Below, piece by piece: positions 5,619 to 64,000 of a stretch of DNA of 64,000 nucleotides; positions within the stretch are counted from its first letter, which is position 1, and every line of letters begins with the position of its first letter. The translations under genes were made by a program, and so were the position numbers. The DNA lies in IMG/VR virus record IMGVR_UViG_3300048834_000246, positions 3,969 through 67,968 of that record, one strand, 5' to 3'. This DNA comes from a virus. The notes beneath the pieces were generated by a model. It did no database searches, was not told where the DNA came from, and saw nothing but the letters and a program-made list of their open reading frames with translations.

Positions 5619-5692
5619 AATGATGATATAGTGTAATGGGAGCATAACCGTCTTTATGTCGGTAGGAGAGGTTCGAATCCTCACCATCGTTT
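5619..5692 (+). tRNA. degenerate tRNA-like gene, apparent anticodon TTA
   Basis: D-loop TAATGGGA and T-arm GAGG-TTCGAAT-CCTC; ACCG/CGGT stem around loop TCTTTATGT; irregular acceptor stem. Confidence 0.5.
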
Positions 5693-6884: not shown

Positions 6885-7259
6885 GTGTACTCTAACGAAC
6901 AAATGAATGAGTATATGAAAAATCGGTGGACGAAACGACGAGAAACCGCTATACTAAGTTTAGGTGGAGTATGTGTTTCTTGTGGAAGTACTGAAAATTT
7001 AGAATTTGACCATATTGATCCTAATACAAAAGAGTTTACTCTAGCGGCGGGATCAGGATTTTCCGAAGAACGATTCTCTAAAGAATTAGCTAAGTGTCAA
7101 CTTCTTTGTGTATCGTGCCATAAACTAAAACACAGGGCACCCCATGGAACGTTAGCTAGAAAACGAGATTGTAACTGTTCTTTGTGTAAAGAAGCTTGGA
7201 ATACGTGGAACCGAGAATATAAACGACGTAGACGACAAGCAAAAAATATCCCGTTGTAG
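6885..7259 (+). CDS. HNH endonuclease (paralog of 5896-6297)
   Basis: CVSC...LEFDHIDP...ELAKCQLLCVSCH, plus HG...CNCSLC. Confidence 0.85.
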   Translation: MYSNEQMNEYMKNRWTKRRETAILSLGGVCVSCGSTENLEFDHIDPNTKEFTLAAGSGFSEERFSKELAKCQLLCVSCHKLKHRAPHGTLARKRDCNCSLCKEAWNTWNREYKRRRRQAKNIPL

Positions 7260-7322
7260 TAGAGTGGCCGCTACACTAGACTTTTAATCTTTGAGACAGA
7301 GGTTCGAATCCTCTCAGCGGGA
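7250..7322 (+). tRNA. tRNA-Lys(TTT)
   Basis: CCCGTTG/CAGCGGG stem, loop CTTTTAA (weak anticodon stem), canonical T-arm. Confidence 0.75.
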
Positions 7323-7333
7323 CTAAATAACTT

Positions 7334-46623: not shown

Positions 46624-46652
46624 AGTATACACACAAGTCTTCTACTTGTCAA
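46624..46652 (-). promoter_or_regulatory. sigma70 promoter
   Basis: TTGACA-17-TATACT. Confidence 0.8.
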
Positions 46653-49060
46653 GGGTTTTCTCTAAGCGTTTCAAGAAGTGCGCGTCGAATGTTTGTGTCT
46701 CGGAATGCTAGAGCTTTATTCACAGCGGTATCAATACTATCTTTTGCAAGGACATTGATAACACGAACGCGTGACGTTTGACCAGCACGCCTGGCTCGGG
46801 CGATAGCCTGTTGAATGGTACTCGGTAGGTAATCCTGTTCCGCGAACAGTAACAAGCTGCTGTGCTGCAAGTTCACGCCTTCGGTGAGGGATGCTAACGT
46901 AGCAACAATAATTCCATTATCCCTCGTTTTCCACTCTTCAACAAGTCGGTTACGCTCGGTTGTTGCCATACCGCCACGAATTTCGTACACAGGTCGGTCA
47001 TCGTTTTTCTCACGCAAATGACGTGCAATCATCTGGCACGTTCCTCTGAACCACGTAAACACAATTGCAGGTTCTAGTTCGTGGTCATCCAGGTATTCGG
47101 AGATAATAGAAACCTTTGGATTTTCTTTTAACTCTCCTACAATCGCACCGTCTTCAACCACAAACCCCGCTGTAAGCTGCCTAAGCTTTGCTACCAGGGC
47201 ACCTCCGCTACTAATAGCTACAGGATCGTCCAAATCAGGATGCTCAATAAACCACTCCTTCTTAGCAGTATCATGTGCTTTTCTCATGCTCGGCGGCATA
47301 TCGAATACATGATTTGTTTCTAATGGAAGATCAGTCCACGCAGGAATAACCCCCGTGCGGTTGAATTCTTCGTTGATAACTGTTTCATAGTTACGACGCA
47401 ACATATAGTTGTTAAGCATATCTGCAAACGCTACTTCAAGGTCAGGATTAACACCCTTAATAATCGTTGTCCACGGTGTCGTTTCCGTTTCACACCAAGT
47501 GCCAACAAATTTCCAGTACGAAGAAAACTTCACCCGGTCGATGATACGAAGTAACGGCCACAAATCTCCTGGGTTGTTGACGATAGGGGTACCCGTAAGC
47601 ATCCAAAAGTAGTCGGACTTTATCTTCAATATGTTCTTTGTCCACTGACTCTTTCTTCCTCGAAGACGGTGGGATTCATCAGCGATAACCGCTCCCCACG
47701 CATAGGTAAGAAGTTCAGGGTGTTTCTTCATGCCTTCGTTCATAAACATATGATAGTTGACAATAACCCACCCTGTAAACTCTTTCGGAACCGGCGCATC
47801 TTTCCTGGCGACAATCATCCACGGAACATCCGGAGAATAGGCAGAGATAACAGTGCCCCACTGTTCCAAAAGATACGGTGGGGCAATAATGAGTTTTCTT
47901 TTGTTACTGGCTATATCATTCCCCGCGCTTACCGCCGGGAAGGAATTGTGTGTAACGATAAAATCATTGGTAACGTATAGATGATCTTTAGCATCAACAG
48001 AAATACATTGAGCTTTTTTAGTTCCAACAAACTCAATCCCAGAAACTTTTCTCATAGGAAAATACTTTGTTCGAGGTGAGTATTGACATAATTTTTCGTA
48101 AACAAGAAAAGGCTGTATCGTATTAGGAAGTGAAGGAATAACCCGATATGACGGTAATCCCTGCTTGCGCTCACCCTTGTAGGTAAACCACGAATTAGTT
48201 CGCGGGGTTACTCGTGCAACACCCCCAAGACTTTGAATCAAAAAAACAACCCCCTCGGATAGTTTCTTCGATGTTGTTGAATATTCAATTGTAGAATTAC
48301 CTACAACACTACCATCGCTATCCAATAACCCTTGGAGTAACGAGACTCGACTATTTACCGAATTTAGAAGAAGTTCTTCGGGAATAAATTTATCATAGGA
48401 GTGTTTCTCAGACAAACCAATTGAACGAATATACTCTAGCAATATATTTACAGACACGCCTTTTTTTCGTCTAATTGTATAGTCATAAGAGTTATTTTTG
48501 TTTAGTTCCAAAGTGTTTGGCAAACGTTCAACGATCATGTCCCGCACAGTATCGTTGGGTACTGACACCGACACTCTTTTTCGGCCAAAATGACCGTTTC
48601 CTAAAAGGTACCCCATAACCCACGGGTCAATTACAGTTCGCTTTTCCGTAAACTGTACTGGATCAACCAGAGGTACTTGAATGTTTTGAGGAATTAGTGC
48701 AGCAAGATCGGTTGTTTTTACAATACGGCTACATTTTCCGTCTCTACGCATAGTCTTTGTTGTAACAGACCATAGATGGTCCGCGTCACATTCTGTATGC
48801 GTTCCATCATTGAATAACACGCGGAAAACAGGTCTTTCCCCTTGTGGGTAAACACCAGTAACTGTTGTTGGGTAGCCGTTTTTTCCAATTACTACTGTTC
48901 CAACCTTAACATTCTCCATACGAGTATAACCGGTAGGAGTAAGCACAAGAGCGTCTAATCCTTGTGCTTTCCCCATCCCCGGCTCGTCTGCAAGAATGCT
49001 TGAAGGATGTTTCAGAAGAAACTCTCTCGCCTCCTTCTGATAGTCCCACAACGTAATCAT
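46649..49060 (-). CDS. SNF2-like SF2 helicase (intein-containing)
   Basis: YQ, ADEPGMGK|S, DESH, LTGTP, EGVNLQ, QAIARARRAGQ. Confidence 0.9.
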   Translation of the reverse strand: MITLWDYQKEAREFLLKHPSSILADEPGMGKAQGLDALVLTPTGYTRMENVKVGTVVIGKNGYPTTVTGVYPQGERPVFRVLFNDGTHTECDADHLWSVTTKTMRRDGKCSRIVKTTDLAALIPQNIQVPLVDPVQFTEKRTVIDPWVMGYLLGNGHFGRKRVSVSVPNDTVRDMIVERLPNTLELNKNNSYDYTIRRKKGVSVNILLEYIRSIGLSEKHSYDKFIPEELLLNSVNSRVSLLQGLLDSDGSVVGNSTIEYSTTSKKLSEGVVFLIQSLGGVARVTPRTNSWFTYKGERKQGLPSYRVIPSLPNTIQPFLVYEKLCQYSPRTKYFPMRKVSGIEFVGTKKAQCISVDAKDHLYVTNDFIVTHNSFPAVSAGNDIASNKRKLIIAPPYLLEQWGTVISAYSPDVPWMIVARKDAPVPKEFTGWVIVNYHMFMNEGMKKHPELLTYAWGAVIADESHRLRGRKSQWTKNILKIKSDYFWMLTGTPIVNNPGDLWPLLRIIDRVKFSSYWKFVGTWCETETTPWTTIIKGVNPDLEVAFADMLNNYMLRRNYETVINEEFNRTGVIPAWTDLPLETNHVFDMPPSMRKAHDTAKKEWFIEHPDLDDPVAISSGGALVAKLRQLTAGFVVEDGAIVGELKENPKVSIISEYLDDHELEPAIVFTWFRGTCQMIARHLREKNDDRPVYEIRGGMATTERNRLVEEWKTRDNGIIVATLASLTEGVNLQHSSLLLFAEQDYLPSTIQQAIARARRAGQTSRVRVINVLAKDSIDTAVNKALAFRDTNIRRALLETLRENP
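47945..48967 (-). mobile_element. class 3 intein with a LAGLIDADG endonuclease (341 aa)
   Basis: Starts AQGLD, ends VTHN|S; DHLW, AQCISV and VTHN give the WCT triplet; GYLLGNG and GLLDSDG motifs. Confidence 0.9.
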
Positions 49061-49061
49061 G

Positions 49062-49364
49062 TTAATCCTTTCGAAAACGAAGAAACAACAGGAATCTATT
49101 CCAGGTACGACGATACCACCAATACGGTTCGTGGTCGAATTGCACACCTTGAATCAACGACTCTACAATTGAGTCATAAGGAATATGCCTCCCGCTTTTC
49201 TCGTAAATTTTCGCTGCGTATTCCGTTAACGCAATGGCATTTGCAACCTTTCGCACATCCATTGTGCCGTGTTCAATTGCCAAATGCAACATATCTAGGT
49301 CGCTATATTTTTGCTGGTATGGATTTGACTCGTCATTGAGCCAACGCTCAATGACATTTACCAT
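49062..49364 (-). CDS. hypothetical protein (100 aa)
   Basis: Operon packing. Confidence 0.65.
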   Translation of the reverse strand: MVNVIERWLNDESNPYQQKYSDLDMLHLAIEHGTMDVRKVANAIALTEYAAKIYEKSGRHIPYDSIVESLIQGVQFDHEPYWWYRRTWNRFLLFLRFRKD

Positions 49365-54939: not shown

Positions 54940-56457
54940 CTAGTGAAGCTGCCCGTACGTTTCAAGCGCTAACCTACAACTCTGACATAGTGATACGAGA
55001 CGCTCTTGGTAGTAAAATTCGTCGCTGTCAATACGGACAATATGGTTCGTTAAGGTTCTACCTGTATTAAGGCACAGGGAACACACCACACAGTCGTGAC
55101 AAAGGTCCATTAGCGGTCCTTCCTCGATGGTAAGTGACGGAAACAACGATGTTCGAATTGTTCGCTCTGAACGGATATTACGACTAAGCGGCTCATATGT
55201 ACCACAACTCTGACAGACGTTGTTCCGTATGCACGTATCACAAAGATAATGACCGTTTAAATCCTCTATAAGTGTCGAAGACACCGGATTTCCACAGTGG
55301 CACGACACTAACCCCGCAACGCTTTGTACGAAACAAGAGCGGCATTGTTTGGTAACACCGTCCCACGTTCGTACATTTCGTGAATCAACGCACTGACACG
55401 TTGAACATACGTGACGGTTTTGGCACGTAGGGCATAGTCCACCTACAATATCGCTTGGTTCGTAGTCCTGATAACACCACGTACAACGACGTGCTTGCAC
55501 ACACGAATAACAATAGTCTCCGTCTCCGTCCCTCACGATACCGCAATCCGCACATCGGCTAAGGCCTGGGTAGCCCTCAGTATTTTGCAGCGTGAACGTA
55601 AGCTCAGAGTCTCGTTGCCGCGAGTAGTTGGTGAGAACCCCCTGTGCCGTGTCTCCCTTTTTTTTCAGGGAAATATATTGAAACGTATCCATGTAAGGGA
55701 ACGCTTCAAACAAAGCATTGTCAATCGTCACACAGAAGGACTTCGTTTCTCTATAACCTTCTGGTGAGTACCATTTACGAGGGCTGTCATACGTTTGGTA
55801 CTGCTTGTGCCAAAACCCCCGCTCTTTCGCCCACGCCTTTACCGCCTCAACTGTGCTTCTTCGTCCATAGATGCGATCAACCAGGGTTTCCCCACTATCG
55901 GCTGTCCACACCAACGCACGCCCAATAATCTTACCGGTATTTGGCTTACTCACAATAAGCATTCGAATTTTATCGGGATTCTTCACGTACACATCAAAAT
56001 ACGGAGCGCACTTGTCGTAGCGCATACAGGAACTACGGAGCGATCCAGTATCTCCACCGCTGTAGTTTGCTCCATTATACCAATAACGAATGTCTTCCCC
56101 GGATACAAGCTCAAAAAAACAGGCTTTCCGTTCAACTACCGAGTCAAGCAGGTAAAGAAACCGCTCAATATCTGCATCCATTAGATAAACAAGAAACAGG
56201 GAACGAATAAGCCGCCCAGGTCGCATTGACTGTCGGCTAGAAGACGTGAAGTTAGCCTCGTCGTTATCAAAAACCTCTTTTGACACCGGAAGATATGAGA
56301 TTTCCCCTATAGAGGATTCCCAATCAAGATAATTTACGCGGTCGGACGTAACAAGGCTTGACGTAGGTGACAACAACGTGCGTGCAATCTGACACCCCCC
56401 ATCAAGTTTATTAACCTCTGTAAGAAGTTCCCGCAACCGATCCGTCATTTTCAACAC
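54940..56457 (-). CDS. SCM/DRIYG/PYMD-motif phage protein with a Cys-rich tail
   Basis: GSLRSSCMRY, GRALVW, DRIYG, FPYMDTF; many CxxC pairs. Confidence 0.8.
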   Translation of the reverse strand: MLKMTDRLRELLTEVNKLDGGCQIARTLLSPTSSLVTSDRVNYLDWESSIGEISYLPVSKEVFDNDEANFTSSSRQSMRPGRLIRSLFLVYLMDADIERFLYLLDSVVERKACFFELVSGEDIRYWYNGANYSGGDTGSLRSSCMRYDKCAPYFDVYVKNPDKIRMLIVSKPNTGKIIGRALVWTADSGETLVDRIYGRRSTVEAVKAWAKERGFWHKQYQTYDSPRKWYSPEGYRETKSFCVTIDNALFEAFPYMDTFQYISLKKKGDTAQGVLTNYSRQRDSELTFTLQNTEGYPGLSRCADCGIVRDGDGDYCYSCVQARRCTWCYQDYEPSDIVGGLCPTCQNRHVCSTCQCVDSRNVRTWDGVTKQCRSCFVQSVAGLVSCHCGNPVSSTLIEDLNGHYLCDTCIRNNVCQSCGTYEPLSRNIRSERTIRTSLFPSLTIEEGPLMDLCHDCVVCSLCLNTGRTLTNHIVRIDSDEFYYQERLVSLCQSCRLALETYGQLH

Positions 56458-57529: not shown

Positions 57530-58236
57530 TTACCCGGCGATGCTTTTAGCTCCGTTGATATTGAACTTCCGACCCTCGGAAAGTCCAGACGCATAGCCAG
57601 AATTGTTTGCGACACGCTGTTGAATGTTTGACGTGCGCGGAAAGAACGTGCGGAACGCTTTCTTAGCTTCGTCTTCTTCAACGAGTACCAACGCACTCCC
57701 GCCAGAAAAGTCCTTTGCGGCTTGTCGTTTTGCTTCTTGAAGTGCCTGATTCAGTCCCGTAACCATTCCGTTGTAGAATGAATTCTTCCAAGACTTCTTT
57801 GAAACGTAGGGCCGAATACCTTCCTGCGTGTACCGGTACTCTCCAATCACCTCCACTTCTTTTTCAAGCCAAGCGAACATCGCTTTCGTTGCTTGAATAT
57901 ACTTCGGTGGCCCCACCCGGTCAATTTTGCGTTACCAGTATGTGAGATAACACAACAGAAGTTGTGGCGTGCCACAATGTTCAGCAAGGATCGACGCCAG
58001 TTTGCAACCGAGCCAATGGTTACATCCTCTTGAATGTGTGCCGTAGAATCATCACGACCCCCCAACCGAGCTCCCACATCAGCCAATTCCAAGCCGTACT
58101 TCGTGAGCAACCGCCCCATCGCATTTGCCGCCGCCTCCATTTCACCTTGCGTTGCCGCACGCTTATGAAGTTCCTGAATTTTCTCCATCTTGTTCAAGAT
58201 AGAATCCCAATTCAGTTCGACCGTTCCATCACTCAT
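57530..58236 (-). pseudogene. DUF2786-family protein split by a frameshift near 57915
   Basis: The N-half (KI..L...A...E..AA....L.KYGL, WRRSL...VA) and C-half (SFYNG...GL, GY..G..EG) lie in overlapping frames. Confidence 0.65.
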
Positions 58237-58262
58237 GCGCCTCTCCTTTTCTTGTTACACTC

Positions 58263-58291
58263 AGTATACACGACAATCAGTCAAGTGTCAA
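58263..58291 (-). promoter_or_regulatory. sigma70 promoter
   Basis: TTGACA-17-TATACT. Confidence 0.8.
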
Positions 58292-58749
58292 GGAGTAGGG
58301 CTTCTGAAAGCCCGATGATAATTGTTTAAATCATTTTCTTCGATAAATGCTACTCTAACCGTCCCATCTTCAATAGCGGTTACAATTCCATGACAATTAG
58401 AACAAAGAACAATACACTTATTCATTTCGTCACTCAACGATTTAATACTTCCATAGGAAAGTCCCCGAGACACATTAAATCGCTTATGCGTTCTGTCCAG
58501 GTGATGAAATTCCAACACAGCTAATCTCGTATCTCCACACATCACACACCCACCACTCTCACGTAAGCGAGTGAATACCAGTTCCACATTACGTAGTCTA
58601 TGAAAATCATTAGCTATGCCATGCTGATTTTTTGGTTGCATCTTTATTAAGTTTGAACACTTGATACAACTTTTTTTACGAATATACCCTCGTACTGTTG
58701 TAAATTCAGATAATGGTTTAGTCCCAGCACAATGAATACACGTTCTCAT
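58288..58749 (-). CDS. HNH endonuclease
   Basis: CIHC..KPLSEF..CIKC; CVMC..LEFHH..EMNKCIVLCSNCH; AT-rich. Confidence 0.85.
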   Translation of the reverse strand: MRTCIHCAGTKPLSEFTTVRGYIRKKSCIKCSNLIKMQPKNQHGIANDFHRLRNVELVFTRLRESGGCVMCGDTRLAVLEFHHLDRTHKRFNVSRGLSYGSIKSLSDEMNKCIVLCSNCHGIVTAIEDGTVRVAFIEENDLNNYHRAFRSPTP

Positions 58750-58796
58750 TTACGACCCCCGCTACTATAAACACACAATATTATAGAATATAATCT

Positions 58797-58918
58797 CCGC
58801 GCCCCGAATTGGTCAATATTGTGGGGTAAAAGTCCGCGCCCCATTTTCTAGAAAAATTGCCGCGCCCCAAATTCGGGTTTAGAAAAAAAGTCAAAAGCTG
58901 TAGAAAAAAAGCCGCGCC
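58797..58918. repeat. four CCGCGCC direct repeats with A/T-tract flanks, preceding an AT-rich tract
   Basis: Copies near 58797, 58834, 58860 and 58912. Confidence 0.7.
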
Positions 58919-59423
58919 AGAAATTGAAGACTTCAAAAAAAGTGCATTATCGTACTATGGAGCCAAAAAATAAGATAAGAATGTAGTACATAAGCGTATA
59001 GCAACATCTATGTATATACTGCATACTACACTAGTAGGTAATACCTACTATACATAGTATGTATACACACATATATACTATATAAGAAAAAAAAGGAAGA
59101 AAAGAGGGGAAAATCCAATCAGCAACCCAATTCCAATCAACAGAATTTCTAATTTTTTTTTGATTAAGTGAGCAATAAATCCAGGGGAAATAACTAAACT
59201 TAATATAATTAGGAAATATAAGTAAATAACCTAATATAGAAAACTTAAGATATAACCTTAAACTTAAGGTAAACTTAATCTAAATTAACCCCCCGGAAAT
59301 ACATGAAGCGCTAGCGCTAGCGCTATTATAAATTATTAGGAAATAAACACAAGAGGATGGTTAAGACCAAACAAAACAAAAAACTTTAAAAAAAATAAAA
59401 ATCGGGAAAACCAGGCCGCGAGA

Positions 59424-59752
59424 ATTGGTCCGACAACCGAACCAATTTTCCCAGGTTGTTCATTGGTCCGACCAATATACCAATTTTCAAAATTGGTTCA
59501 TTGGTCCGACAACTGGACCAATTTTCCAGGTTGTTCATTGGTCATACCAATATACCAATTTTTCCAGGTTGTACATTGGTAGGACAACTAGACAAATTAC
59601 CTGGATTGGTTCGGTTGTCCTACCACCGGACCAATTTTCAAAATTGGTACATTGGTATGACCAATAAACCAATTTTTCCAACTGAGAAAATTGGTCTGAC
59701 CAATGTACGATTTGGTACTCGCATGGAAATTGGTCCGGACAACATTGGTTCG
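59424..59752. repeat. array of ATTGGT-N3-AC(C/A)A(A/C)T palindromes, about 38-bp period, 9 units
   Basis: Units at 59424, 59462, 59500, 59537, 59575, 59613 (inverted), 59651, 59690, 59728. Confidence 0.9.
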
Positions 59753-60239
59753 AACATATCGCGTATATCCTGGTAATCGTCCGAACATTTAAACCCGTGC
59801 TAACGAGGTGAGAGACACAGACACAGACACAGACACAGAGAAACCTGGGTAGCGTCTGTACCCTGGTTCGTGTGTCACCTCGTTACCTGGCCAGAGACAA
59901 AACCCCTAAAACCGCATACTCTAAACGTTTCACACAGTGAAACTATGTCTGTAACGCGTGAAAACCGCCCTGGTTCGCGTTTACCCCTAAAACCGCACAA
60001 ACATACCCTAACGCGGTTTAACCTCGTTAGGGTGTCTTTCTGCGTGTCTGATAATGTGTCTGTGTCTCACCTCGTAACGGTTTCTGTGTTTCGGGGTTTA
60101 GGCTGTACCCCGGTTTCGGGGTAAACCCGTGTACGGGGGTTCCCTGGTTCCCTGGTTACGAGGTGAGAGACACAGAGAAACCCCTAACCCGTAGGGGTTA
60201 GGGGTTCGCGGGTTACGCGGGTTACGCGGGTTACGCGGG

Positions 60240-62462
60240 TTACGCGAACGATAGTTGTACTGGGGTTTCGTTCCACACCCTACTGCTGTAGCGGTTTTGA
60301 TATGCACGATGATTGCGTATCACCGATGCCACATCATACCCAGCGTTAGCGGTTTCTTCATCGTTTCGCGGCTGTGTGTGTGCATATCGCCCGTCAAGTC
60401 TCACATACGAAGAGTATCCGCTATACCCGAACATTGACAGGCTACGCGGTTTACAGACGGTGCAATAGGCGCCGTCTTCAAAACGCGAACGAGGTTCGCC
60501 ACAATGTAAACACGGGGTAGCGTTCATGCACTCGTTACACAGTGGCGTGCTGTCGGTTTCATCGCCGCACATTTCACAGTGCGTTGCGTAACACGCTGGG
60601 CATACGTCACCCGACAACTCCGCGTGCCATTGCAAAACGTCTGCGTCGTTTTGCAATTCCCCACACTGCGAACACGTAGACGTATCCGCACAGACTTCAC
60701 AGAGATTGCGATAATCGCCCGTAACGGTTTCTCGTTCCTCGGTGCTGTACTCGTACTCCCCACACGATTCACAGATACCGCTACCGTAGCAGTCTTCACA
60801 GAGATAATCGCCGTGCGGGGTAAACATATCGTCGCGGTCGCCCGTGTACCCGCACTGCGAACACTCTACCCCGGTAACTTCATAGTTACCGTCTGTGCCA
60901 GTGAGACTGCGGAAACCGACACTGTAGAACGCCTGAAGACGTTCTAAACCGGGGTGGAAGTATGCATACGAGTCCATATAAGGGTAATACCCCGTTTCGG
61001 ACGGTTTCATATGCAACCAGGACTGATATACCCGCGTGCTGTACCCGTGTTCGGATGCAAACGCGTTAATCGCCGCCGTTACGGTTTCGTTACCGTAAAT
61101 GCGATCTATGTAACGGTCGCCGTTCGGGGTAGTCCATAACAGAGAACGTCCGTAAATGGTTCGATCTTCATCGACGCAAACGAGGATAGAAACCGTGCCA
61201 GGGTTTTCCGCGTACCATCGTACATAGTCTTGTGCATAGCCGTATCGCATACACGAACCGTGTAGCGAACCAGTCGTAATCCCGCGAACATAGTTACCCT
61301 CGTGATACGCGTACAGAATGTCATCTCCGGACCATTCTTCGATATGTGTCGGTAGCGGGGTAAACGCTTTCGTAAACCGATGCGCTACGGTTTCGATTGT
61401 GGCGTCTGTCACCGCGATGTTAAGTGTGTTAACCAGTTTTCGTAGAAACCGCCCGTACTTCATTTTCTTTCGGGGTACGGTAGCGGGTTTCGTATCCTCG
61501 TTATACGAAACGTACCCGTCGTCATTGCATCGAAACGCGTACCCGATAGCCGGTGGTATCGAGTTACATACGAGGTCAATCACCTCGTACTCGGCTTCTG
61601 TGTACACGTCCCGCATAAGTGCATCACGAAGGTCGTACACGTCGGGGTTAATCCACTGTCTAATAAACGTACCCGAACCAGGAAACGCTAGGTGATTCTC
61701 ACCCAAGACGGTTTCGCCGTGATTAATCGCCGCATACGCGTATGACGGACCATACACGGGGTCATTGACGGTGCGAACACGCAAGCTATAGACGCGATTA
61801 GCGTCTGTCATTTTCCGATACCCCGAACCCGCTACCGTGTCTTCCCCGAACACGAACACAGACGGGGTAAAACACGCGTCAAAATATGTTTGTATCGCAC
61901 CCTTAGCGGCGTATGTCGCGTCCTCGTATGTCGTCAACGATGGTGCAGAAACGCGCCAGAGGGACGGTAAAACCGCGTCACGTACAAACGTGTACGCGTG
62001 CTGGGTGACCAGCACGGGGTAGGGGTCTTCATATGACCTCCGTGCGGGTTCATCAAACACAGTGATCGTTACCGCATGATTGTCTTTATCTGTAGCGGTT
62101 TTACGCGTGACGATAAACGACCGGTGCCCGCTAGGTTGCAGCGTGAAACCGGTTTCCTGGTTCCACAATTCCGACACGGAAACCCCGTCACCGAACGAAC
62201 CTACATACGCGGTCGCCGCGGTGCGAACGTCGGGGTACTGCGTGTAATCGAGGGTCGTAACGGTTTCGAACGTTTGAAACAGTTGCATGCTTTTCACCTC
62301 GTTAGACGTGTTCGCGGTTTCGTTCGTGAATCCGGTTTCGTTCGCGTTCATTTGTTTTGCCTCCGTTTCTGTGTTCGCGTTTTCGCATTTTTCCGAACAG
62401 AAGTAGCTATACGGTCTAGTGACCTCGTTTCCACATGTCGGGCAGGTCGGTTCTTCGTTCAT
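60240..62462 (-). CDS. SCM/DRIYG/PYMD-motif protein with Zn-ribbon repeats (paralog of 54940-56457)
   Basis: GSLHGSCMRY, GRSLLW, DRIYG, YPYMDSY; many CxxC pairs. Confidence 0.8.
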   Translation of the reverse strand: MNEEPTCPTCGNEVTRPYSYFCSEKCENANTETEAKQMNANETGFTNETANTSNEVKSMQLFQTFETVTTLDYTQYPDVRTAATAYVGSFGDGVSVSELWNQETGFTLQPSGHRSFIVTRKTATDKDNHAVTITVFDEPARRSYEDPYPVLVTQHAYTFVRDAVLPSLWRVSAPSLTTYEDATYAAKGAIQTYFDACFTPSVFVFGEDTVAGSGYRKMTDANRVYSLRVRTVNDPVYGPSYAYAAINHGETVLGENHLAFPGSGTFIRQWINPDVYDLRDALMRDVYTEAEYEVIDLVCNSIPPAIGYAFRCNDDGYVSYNEDTKPATVPRKKMKYGRFLRKLVNTLNIAVTDATIETVAHRFTKAFTPLPTHIEEWSGDDILYAYHEGNYVRGITTGSLHGSCMRYGYAQDYVRWYAENPGTVSILVCVDEDRTIYGRSLLWTTPNGDRYIDRIYGNETVTAAINAFASEHGYSTRVYQSWLHMKPSETGYYPYMDSYAYFHPGLERLQAFYSVGFRSLTGTDGNYEVTGVECSQCGYTGDRDDMFTPHGDYLCEDCYGSGICESCGEYEYSTEERETVTGDYRNLCEVCADTSTCSQCGELQNDADVLQWHAELSGDVCPACYATHCEMCGDETDSTPLCNECMNATPCLHCGEPRSRFEDGAYCTVCKPRSLSMFGYSGYSSYVRLDGRYAHTQPRNDEETANAGYDVASVIRNHRAYQNRYSSRVWNETPVQLSFA

Positions 62463-63233
62463 TTGTTACACCCCGTGTCACTTTGTTACTTTGTGCCGAA
62501 ACCCGACACAAAACGAGGATAAACGAAAACCGGACAAAATGTCAATCTATGCGACCTGGTTTCGGTTTTGTTCGCTTATATGGAAGATACCTCGAAACCC
62601 TGGCCAGACTGAAGCTATCACCTCGTTACTGATATATCGTCTCATTAAGGCTACATCACCCTGGTTTTCACTCCGAAACACGCGTAAACCGTCTGTAAAT
62701 GAAGTAGGGGTATCCGCAGGTCAAATGACACGCGTACACGTTTACAACGCGTCTACGGTGCCTTAAAACGCGTTCTAGGGGTATATCCGGTTGACTGCGT
62801 GTCTGTGTTTCCTGGTTTTAGACGGTTTCGGGGTTTTAGCCTACTTCGGGAAAATAGGCGAAACCGGACTGCCTGGTACGTTTTATGCGGTCGTTACCTG
62901 GTTTTAGCTTAGAAGTATCAGAACCCGCGAAAACCGCGTAGCGTGTTTACCGCGTTTTCTGTGTTCTCTAACCCTGGTTCTAACGAGGTGAGATACAAAA
63001 CCCGAAACCGTTACACACTGTGTAGCGGTTTCGGGTTTCCTGGTTTCGGCGTCACCTCGTTACCGTCGTTTCAATTGACAGAGTGTCCATAGGTCATCTG
63101 ATACGTGCAAACCGGATAACGCGTCTACGGTGCCTTAAAACGCGCCACAGACGCATAGCGGGGTTTCTAACGAGGTAAAAACAAGCACATTTTACCAGGC
63201 AAATTACCGCTTAATGACAGTACCTCTGTCTTT

Positions 63234-63262
63234 TGTGGATATGTGGATAACTTTGTTGATAA
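63234..63262 (-). promoter_or_regulatory. cluster of three DnaA-box-like sites
   Basis: TGTGGATAT, TGTGGATAA (perfect TTATCCACA on the - strand) and TGTTGATAA. Confidence 0.6.
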
Positions 63263-63884
63263 CAATAGTTCTTTATCTCATTGTATAGAATAGTTGTGTA
63301 GCAGCTACTTAAGTATATCCTGGTTATGATTCACTACTCTAATGTTCCGATGTACACAGGGTTCAATACCCTAATGATTTACCCTGGTAACTATCGCCCG
63401 GTTACTATCGCCTGGTTACAATTAGGGTATAGAACGTTTCGGTATCCGTAGGGGTTTTGTACACTAGGCTTAGTATTGTTTCGTTACTTATCCCTGGTTA
63501 CATATTTGTGCTAGTCGCCTGGTTTCGCCTGGTTCTCTGTGTTCTCTGTGTTCTCTGTCCTCGTTACTGCCTGGTTACTATCGCCTGGTTTCGGTTTCGG
63601 TTTCGAGGTATCGCCTGGTTCGGGGTACGTAGGGGTTTAGGTTCGCGGGGTATCTGGCACTCTGTGAAACGAGGTTGATAAAGCGTGCTATACGTAGGGT
63701 TTAGGGTAAAGACTTATCAGGACAAATAAAACAAATTGGTACGCAGGATTGGTACTACTTCTAAACAAGTTAACTAGTTTACTATTTACAGACGCCTATA
63801 CGGTTATATTTAGATATCAGCATATCGTGATATTCATATCATCATATCATCATATCTAGATATACATATATCTTCATATTGTTT

Positions 63885-64000
63885 ATTGGTATGACCAATT
63901 AACAGCTGGCCTGGGCCTGGTACCGGGTCTGACCAATGTACACATATTGTCAGTATGTGTATTGGTAGGACCACTTATGTCAAATTGGTCAATTGGTAGG
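63885..64000. repeat. second ATTGGT-N3-ACCAAT array (runs off the window edge)
   Basis: ATTGGTATGACCAAT at 63885, GGTCTGACCAAT near 63926, ATTGGTAGGACCAC at 63961. Confidence 0.8.

Follow-up and report, generated by a model that had tools for sequence, protein, structure and literature searches.

Temperate phages carry in their control regions boxes for the host proteins LexA, IHF, DnaA and Fur, one or a few at a promoter or att site. On plasmids, centromeres of the F sopC type and the iteron arrays that flank the rep gene of P1 and F are built of ~40-bp tandem units, each bearing a repeat, with AT-rich DNA alongside. Another class of sites is recognised by GntR-family regulators of the FadR subfamily: operators of LldR, PdhR, FadR and others share TKGT and ACMA boxes with a 3-nt GT-AC gap (PMC4494728), and the PdhR box of E. 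coli is (A)ATTGGTnnnACCAAT(T) (PMC7660256). A comparative study that includes 450 FadR-subfamily sites reports that the palindromes of GntR-family regulators significantly often have additional half-site boxes, to one side or to both, at 7-12 nt from their centre (PMC4494728). Chromosomal PdhR/LldR operators stand single or paired at promoters of the regulator's own regulon. Here we describe a different arrangement in the virus record IMGVR_UViG_3300048834_000246 (67,968 bp, rated complete by CheckV): 12 sites of this kind in two arrays phased at 38 bp, on a phage with neither a regulator gene nor a metabolic target gene, and with no promoter recognised beneath them. We analysed bases 3969-67968 of the record, a stretch of 64,000 nucleotides called the window below; positions are those of the window unless the record or another locus is named.

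Array A (59424..59752) consists of eight phased sites of the form TKGT-N3-ACMA, covering 59426-59702, and a degenerate ninth unit at 59729. The eight start at 59426, 59464, 59502, 59539, 59577, 59615, 59653 and 59692, at distances of 38, 38, 37, 38, 38, 38 and 39 bp; together with the ninth, these are the nine units at 37-39-bp spacing described in an earlier note made from the sequence alone. Perfect palindromes ATTGGT-N3-ACCAAT lie at 59462, 59537, 59651 and 59690, exactly where that note had placed them. Tandem Repeats Finder reports periods of 38 nt (4.6 copies, 74% matches) and 76 nt (3.1 copies, 79%) for 59424-59656. The extra half-sites noticed earlier between the palindromes are real and keep a fixed order: in both arrays two forward hexamers are followed by two reverse ones, at steps of +8, +9, +8 and +13, summing to 38 nt. 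The unit is a 31-bp composite of four half-sites, ATTGGT-N2-ATTGGT-N3-ACCAAT-N2-ACCAAT, whose perfect form (0.00 expected) occurs at window 59643 and record position 207. The exact hexamer is found 22 times in array A and 11 times in array B.

The units are not identical. Every second one swaps a half-site for ACAAC or GGTTGT, creating the 76-nt super-repeat, and one unit of array A is inverted (59605-59625); the array as a whole has a dyad around 59601. Inner sites mostly carry C, not A, at position -1, and outer half-sites carry AATTGGT. The outer hexamers sit 8 nt outside the inner half-sites; on either side, 11.5 nt separate the middle of their TGGT core from that of the palindrome. An open reading frame (ORF) of 106 amino acids that overlaps the array (59456-59776) has no Pfam match.

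Array B begins in the window (63881..64000); its palindrome at 63885 is perfect, and it matches the consensus at 63887 and 63963. The second array reported to start at 63885 is thus confirmed, and it is cut by the window end: it continues to record position 267 (locus L005:101-267), giving four TKGT-N3-ACMA sites in all and perfect palindromes at record positions 108 (window 63885), 215 and 253. Record 1-223 equals record 67746-67968 (window 63778-64000) with a single mismatch (A/T at record 96 / 67841). The genome map is circular or has a short terminal repeat, and the 223-nt end overlap probably explains why the source classes the record as linear despite its completeness.

Both arrays stand out from chance expectation. 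Exact ATTGGT-N3-ACCAAT occurs 5 times in the window against 0.00 expected from 100 shuffles. Allowing up to 2 mismatches raises this to 10 matches (3.26 +/- 1.87 expected), and TKGT-N3-ACMA occurs 16 times (5.11 +/- 2.59 expected), six of these 16 lying outside the arrays; 0/100 shuffles reach 10 and 16, respectively. In the whole record there are seven unique perfect 15-mers, all within the two arrays. When units are aligned in register, half-site columns hold 1.65 bits, compared with 0.92 for the central N3 and 0.57 for other columns, and the perfect sites use five different N3 triplets. Because the half-sites are conserved while N3 varies, the motif has been maintained and not merely copied, and the arrays are no young duplication; selection acts on the motif. 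A spacing due just to recent tandem duplication without motif conservation, which the earlier note had kept in view, does not agree with these values.

Strain comparison relied on short contigs of low depth (2-5) from coded runs X1 and X2, belonging to one study, and X3, from a second study. Small shares (0.06-0.10) occur in five sequencing runs, with no RNA run listed, and large parts of the stretch are uncovered in the four runs compared. A stretch of 179 nt in array A is replaced by 28 letters in one X1 contig. Array B takes variant forms in contigs of X2 and X3, and one X3 contig reads through such a variant into the same hairpin junction. Since these contigs cover parts of the arrays and differ there, the arrays are not an assembly artefact and vary between strains.

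The motif itself equals the published PdhR box. Of the rows considered from Table 1 of PMC7660256, a score of 14/14 is reached by the site of pdhR alone. The TKGT/ACMA consensus accommodates the hybrid half-sites ACAAC and GGTTGT as well. The outer half-sites, which at first seemed to oppose a reader of the GntR type, belong to the known site pattern of the family. The phage arrays display three features of a FadR-subfamily operator, namely the TKGT/ACMA palindrome with its 3-nt gap, the match to the PdhR box and the flanking half-site boxes; a cognate regulator with GntR and FCD domains in the same genome is what they lack.

Bacterial copies of the motif do have such a neighbour. Scanning metagenomes and genomes for two palindromes ~38 bp apart gave 66 loci, of which 17 were inspected; all seven neighbouring ORFs tested, chosen by eye, carry GntR and FCD domains. 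In both Clostridia loci tested the palindromes are upstream of an L-lactate permease, and in a Halomonas locus the regulator is on one side of them and an FMN-dependent dehydrogenase of the lactate type on the other. Assignment of ATTGGT-N3-ACCAAT to FadR-subfamily regulators such as PdhR and LldR, stated in the earlier note, is now supported by the box of PMC7660256 and by these 7/7 neighbours. Phage and bacterial sites agree in the palindrome, the TKGT/ACMA boxes, the gap and the flanking half-sites, and the bacterial copies are found beside GntR+FCD and lactate genes.

What could read the arrays in the phage? No GntR or FCD domain was found at E <= 1 in a six-frame search of the complete phage, with controls positive in 14/14 and 12/14 genomes, so the absence of a GntR gene first noted for the window extends to the entire genome. 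PHROGs profiles were run on 73 ORFs, and two overlapping Pfam scans covered 40 and 22 proteins, the second at E <= 1. They too showed no GntR, and they revealed no ParA, ParB, ParM, TubZ, Rep or other candidate binder domain, divergent proteins being possibly missed by such profiles. Recognisable DNA binders are an XRE regulator, two TerS-like helix-turn-helix (HTH) proteins, an integrase and several HNH nucleases. The sole XRE-type regulator is encoded at a distance of 9.4 kb, and it has largely the same recognition helix as its counterpart in G001, a relative without arrays.

Between the two arrays lies an ORF of 740 amino acids (60240..62462, minus strand), a member of a phage-only family with five CxxC...CxxC motifs at the C-terminus. 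It is a paralogue of a 505-amino-acid ORF at 54940-56457 on the same strand; the two share a central domain (GSLxxSCMRY...DRIYG) and the C-terminal CxxC runs, and relatives also have two copies. The 740-residue protein has no Pfam, PHROG or PDB match, and a search of viral contigs brought no relative by that route. Its identification as PcfJ was dropped, as the Atlas lead (0.80) was below threshold and other leads were phage hypothetical clusters only. Nor do the arrays correspond to lambdoid OL/OR clusters, which flank the gene of the repressor that reads them: the enclosed gene is not an HTH repressor, and the XRE regulator, 9.4 kb off, keeps most of its recognition helix in G001, where arrays are missing.

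Close relatives lack the arrays. In the three with TerL at 75% identity (G001-G003), the palindrome is missing even when one mismatch is allowed. Gene order and flanking landmarks are preserved in G001: at the position of array B its ATATCATC-type repeats run directly into a GGGGCACCCCCC hairpin, ~167 nt being simply missing, and at the position of array A it has unrelated sequence, which G003 matches. The orthologue of the 740-residue protein and the PolA and primase genes are retained in G001. No conserved phage protein can therefore depend on the arrays; this applies to the enclosed gene and probably to the XRE regulator. By this comparison the arrays are a lineage-specific add-on, directly right of two AT-rich blocks. 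Their gain called for no new gene, which is consistent with a host factor being used. Among GenBank phages, blastn and megablast found no close DNA relative, and the best tblastn match of TerL has <= 48% identity.

We also looked at other palindromes in related phages. An equivalent array of a different palindrome in G001 was rejected, since AGCGA-N-TCGCT forms just one adjacent pair with one other exact copy. Two distant relatives, reached via an M42-like peptidase gene, bear phased palindromes of their own: TTGTAGT-N6-ACTACAA with a 24-nt period (L030:7801-7896) and GGAC-N5-GTCC with a 32-nt period (L035:127-272).

The location of the arrays is that of a control region. By PHROGs annotation the phage is of the siphovirus type, with small and large terminase, portal, capsid and tape-measure genes, and it has a replication module of its own (PolA, primase, SNF2 helicase). 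Transcription is directed rightward from the record start and leftward from ~58.9 kb of the window; the divergence point is a noncoding repeat-rich stretch from 58.75 kb through the record end to record position 826. The cumulative GC-skew minimum, at 60-62 kb, falls within this region, and the lowest G+C of the window (0.399) is that of bin 58001-60000. AT-rich blocks are found directly left of both arrays, a juxtaposition with phased repeats that is also a feature of iteron origins; the block abutting array A covers 59200..59420. This same position is AT-rich in G001 and G003 too, although the sequence of their block is unrelated.

Similar arrays exist in unrelated phages. Two matches of the genome scan are the termini of small linear phages, L122 (13.5 kb) and L123 (14.2 kb), whose inverted terminal repeats measure 60 and 93 nt. 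Both encode a phi29-type single-stranded DNA-binding protein, and in L122 Pfam identifies a PolB of the protein-primed kind and a capsid protein of the phi29 type as well. Each end of the two phages (e.g. L122:1-330) carries 4-6 copies of a 17-bp box, AATTGGT-N3-ACCAATT, positioned between the terminal repeat and the first TTGACA/TATAAT-like promoter. L126, a partial phi29-like phage, has the same array at its one sampled end, and the hybrid site ATTGGT-N3-ACAACT is also present among the boxes of these three phages. They thus share with our phage the 15-17-bp box, the hybrid site, the clustering (4-6 boxes), the position in noncoding control DNA and the lack of GntR, none having been found in the 18 of 30 phi29-like phage ORFs scanned. 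They differ in their protein-primed linear genomes of 13.5-14.2 kb, in a spacing of ~26-40 bp and in having no outer half-sites. No protein is common to the phi29-like phages and the present one (tblastn, E <= 1e-3).

Elsewhere such clusters are rare. In a viral collection of 2.9 million contigs, perfect palindromes are clustered at 3 loci, and about eight further viral loci have operator-like TGGT-N3-ACCA triplets by inspection. No GntR domain was detected in the 47 ORFs flanking those viral loci, nor in 10 records searched whole, most of the records being fragments. Most of the 39 matches of the viral scan with the TGGT core are exact tandem repeats with periods of 12, 15, 18, 36 and 45 nt, set aside by inspection as probable coding repeats; only one of the 39, L152, has a short similarity to our phage, at the TerL region. 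A further viral scan and those of the metagenome and genome collections gave no match related to this phage, and none with more than 10 ATTGGT/ACCAAT hexamers in 400 nt. A host repeat family of the REP/BIME kind was considered and rejected, the genome-collection scan returning 34 loci with one site each. In a complete virus record of 84.9 kb (G015), two adjacent perfect boxes 23 bp apart lie between divergent genes (L130:2001-2038); one of these codes for a small HTH protein, and GntR domains are absent from the record.

We now propose that the arrays, as clusters of high-affinity operators, serve a PdhR/LldR-type repressor of the host as landing pads; they would gate the phage control region and titrate that protein as the phage replicates. 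We give this reading a probability of about one half. No protein of this type being encoded by the phage, the arrays are most likely read by an effector-responsive repressor that belongs to the host. Repressor dimers would load cooperatively on the 8 + 4 phased sites, aided by the flanking half-site boxes, and nucleoprotein complexes would build up next to the two AT-rich blocks at the edges of the central control region. With the effector (pyruvate, lactate or a similar acid) scarce, these complexes would keep the region shut; with effector plentiful, the repressor would leave and early development proceed. Upon multiplication of phage DNA the sites would unavoidably titrate the repressor and de-repress the host regulon. 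In all this, the sites with their phasing, their conservation and their fit to the FadR-type pattern are observed, as are the missing phage GntR and the lack of arrays in close relatives; the binder, its effector and the output are inferred.

Such loading has a precedent in the same subfamily, as several dimers of NanR bind closely spaced hexamers cooperatively and make up a multimeric protein-DNA complex (PMC8012715). The phage half-site steps of 8-9 bp are comparably close and would allow similar loading. The two differ in architecture: the NanR operator, (GGTATA)3, has three direct repeats and its cooperativity depends on a special N-terminal extension, whereas the phage has nested palindromes over ~300 bp.

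Two consequences of binding can be distinguished, and both follow from the same event. A role in cis is favoured by the contact of each array with an AT-rich block on the edge of the control region, and by the phi29-like arrays lying between origin and promoter. Titration is favoured by the unusual number of consensus-grade sites, together with the lack of a recognisable promoter beneath them. The earlier note had suggested a DNA sponge for a host metabolic repressor or a metabolite-sensing switch. Their shared premise, a FadR-type reader from the host, is favoured by the site pattern, by the missing GntR/FCD in the phage and by the occurrence of arrays in unrelated phages; both roles are putative.

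Several observations weigh against this proposal. A sigma-70 consensus scan found no promoter overlapping array A or array B, although the promoters of the host may be of another type; simple promoter occlusion is accordingly not supported. The absence of GntR from the phage lends just mild support to a host reader, because phages rarely encode GntR proteins. The GC-skew minimum at the arrays is confounded by the divergent transcription there. The metagenome-assembled genome that holds L122, which is incomplete and whose assignment as host by binning is weak, contains a single FCD regulator without a TGGT-N3-ACCA site in its 3.4-kb locus, and its two perfect chromosomal palindromes are not beside a GntR gene. 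Finally, phage-specific genes adjoin array B directly, leaving room for a reader encoded by the phage.

That reader is the subject of the main rival explanation: a phage DNA-binding protein would use the arrays as a platform for replication, partition or early transcription, resembling a centromere, an iteron origin or the phi29 p6 complex, and the match to the FadR box would be convergence. We regard this as rather unlikely, while taking it seriously. The early-gene block directly right of array B (record 827-2855), which includes a protein of 162 amino acids, has no counterpart in G001, and is as lineage-specific as the arrays. Palindromic tandem units of ~40 bp, arrays flanking a gene and adjacent AT-rich DNA recall plasmid centromeres and iteron origins; the phi29-like arrays sit where phi29 p6 complexes form; and many phage DNA-binding proteins escape Pfam. 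Against this, the PHROGs and Pfam scans gave no partition, Rep or other DNA-binding candidate. The 162-residue protein, with 3 matches at E <= 0.001 among 1.84 billion representatives, is a near-ORFan without sign of DNA binding; it was located at no locus in viral contigs, and its single-sequence AlphaFold model is unusable (pLDDT 47.5). G001 moreover has the orthologue of the 740-residue protein and the conserved XRE helix, and no arrays. Convergence would also have to reproduce by chance 12-14 specified bases of a host-regulator consensus, along with its TKGT/ACMA degeneracy and the flanking boxes, and to do so twice, in unrelated phages without a common protein.

The phage arrays resemble sopC/parC centromeres in their tandem units, each with a binding repeat (38-nt units, 8 + 4 sites), and differ in that no partition NTPase or family of centromere-binding proteins was found in the ORF scans. 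From an iteron origin they differ in that no Rep was found, in that the enclosed gene persists in relatives without arrays, and in that the phage repeats are palindromes matching the consensus of a host regulator. A centromere or packaging array for a phage protein, the third role suggested in the earlier note, is likewise putative; phage-specific genes do adjoin array B.

A second alternative is that the arrays have no function, being repeats expanded by slippage or a selfish palindromic element tolerated in noncoding DNA. Their absence from close relatives and their variation in length and sequence between strains would agree with this. However, the half-sites are conserved far above spacers and N3, two separate arrays keep the same 8/9/8/13 pattern, and seven perfect consensus sites are not expected from neutral drift. 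No dispersed element family emerged from the genome, metagenome and viral collection scans either, and we consider this explanation improbable.

The array might instead work in a folded state, single-stranded or extruded as a cruciform, and for instance help to prime or unwind an origin, in place of offering duplex binding sites. Array A folds at -79.1 kcal/mol compared with -39.7 +/- 4.3 for shuffled sequences (z = -9.2), and its overall dyad and its contact with AT-rich DNA at the GC-skew minimum would suit such a role. Yet any palindrome array gives such a z-score, and the centroid structure keeps few pairs. Selection bears on the hexamer itself, beyond complementarity, with the same hexamer recurring everywhere, and relatives with the same replication genes do without arrays. 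This makes a structural role very improbable. Least likely of all are pac/cos-type packaging sites for the small terminase or markers of genome ends: array B and the ATATCATC region do contain the 223-nt overlap of the record ends, the phage has genes for two TerS-like HTH proteins, and the distant TerL relative L152 has a 4-site cluster ~1 kb from a terminase-like gene, but the arrays are ~13 kb from terS/terL and two in number, not one, and the overlap has a mismatch and ends mid-unit, as an assembly break in a repeat would, in data that consist of contigs.

Returning to a host repressor as reader, the phage would exploit a host DNA-binding protein without encoding one, as phages do with LexA, IHF, DnaA and Fur; the difference is between few sites and a dozen in arrays. 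Host-factor sites in phage control regions are already known. A literature search on PdhR/LldR sites or decoy arrays borne by phages, at the level of search results, gave nothing relevant and no dozen-site phased operator array on a phage without regulator. More tentatively, phages might in general gain, without any new gene, a phased operator array for a host PdhR/LldR-type repressor, which would serve as a pyruvate/lactate sensor for the early programme or origin and as a sponge driven by copy number. Such a device would have arisen independently in a 68-kb siphophage and in 14-kb phi29-like phages; we view this generalisation as possible rather than probable.

The control region contains other repeats in addition to the arrays. 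Directly left of array B are 8-nt periodic repeats of the ATATCATC type (63806..63879), which are kept in G001. There, too, the ATATCATC / ATATCGTGATATCA repeats with their 8-nt period (L117:12488-12553) are upstream of the rightward operon, and they may be a conserved cis element, origin or promoter, to which array B was added. Between array A and the 740-residue gene, 59790..60246 is filled with further short repeats (AGACAC x4.5, GGGTTACGC x5, CCTGGTT-type and GTCACCTCGTTAC-type), and a similar block occupies 62462-63700; these are separate from the ATTGGT arrays. Short-repeat families, including GTTCTCTGT x3, surround the gene and lie partly inside it, and G001 has different families in the same places (L117:7570-12100). 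At the end of the leftward operon, tandem units of a GC-rich hairpin and an A-run (GCCGCGCC...AAAA type, 2-4 copies) are found at 58849-58943, L117:7129-7247 and L118:9003-9064, being conserved in the phage, G001 and G003.

The remainder of the genome includes an integrase-family gene, the XRE regulator, RtcB and 17 tRNAs, and an Rfam scan detected tRNAs only. Two genes of the 17-tRNA cluster have the anticodon TTA (5620-5691 and 7250-7323; Rfam 31.7 and 56.1 bits) and would read the stop codon TAA; the structural genes look intact under code 11, giving no sign of recoding despite these tRNAs. The gene of the SNF2-type helicase (46649-49147, minus strand) is broken by LAGLIDADG / Hom_end domains at residues ~255-317, which looks like an intein, and its G001 homologue aligns over just 430 residues. 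The phrog_421 gene (DUF2786 + DUF7168; 57530-58236, minus strand) is present as two ORFs with a 70-nt overlap, corresponding to the N- and C-terminal halves of the profile, and has no homologue in G001. The split could be a frameshift, programmed or in error.

The motif being the PdhR box of E. coli, the idea is directly testable in a laboratory strain. The terminal arrays of phi29-like phages suggest that the device may recur. If a phage protein is the reader after all, the arrays would define a new element of the centromere or origin kind, together with an ORFan DNA-binding protein. If instead our best reading is true, they would provide the virus with a non-coding route to read or rewire the central carbon metabolism of its host, a layer that gene-based annotation, searches for auxiliary metabolic genes included, misses entirely.

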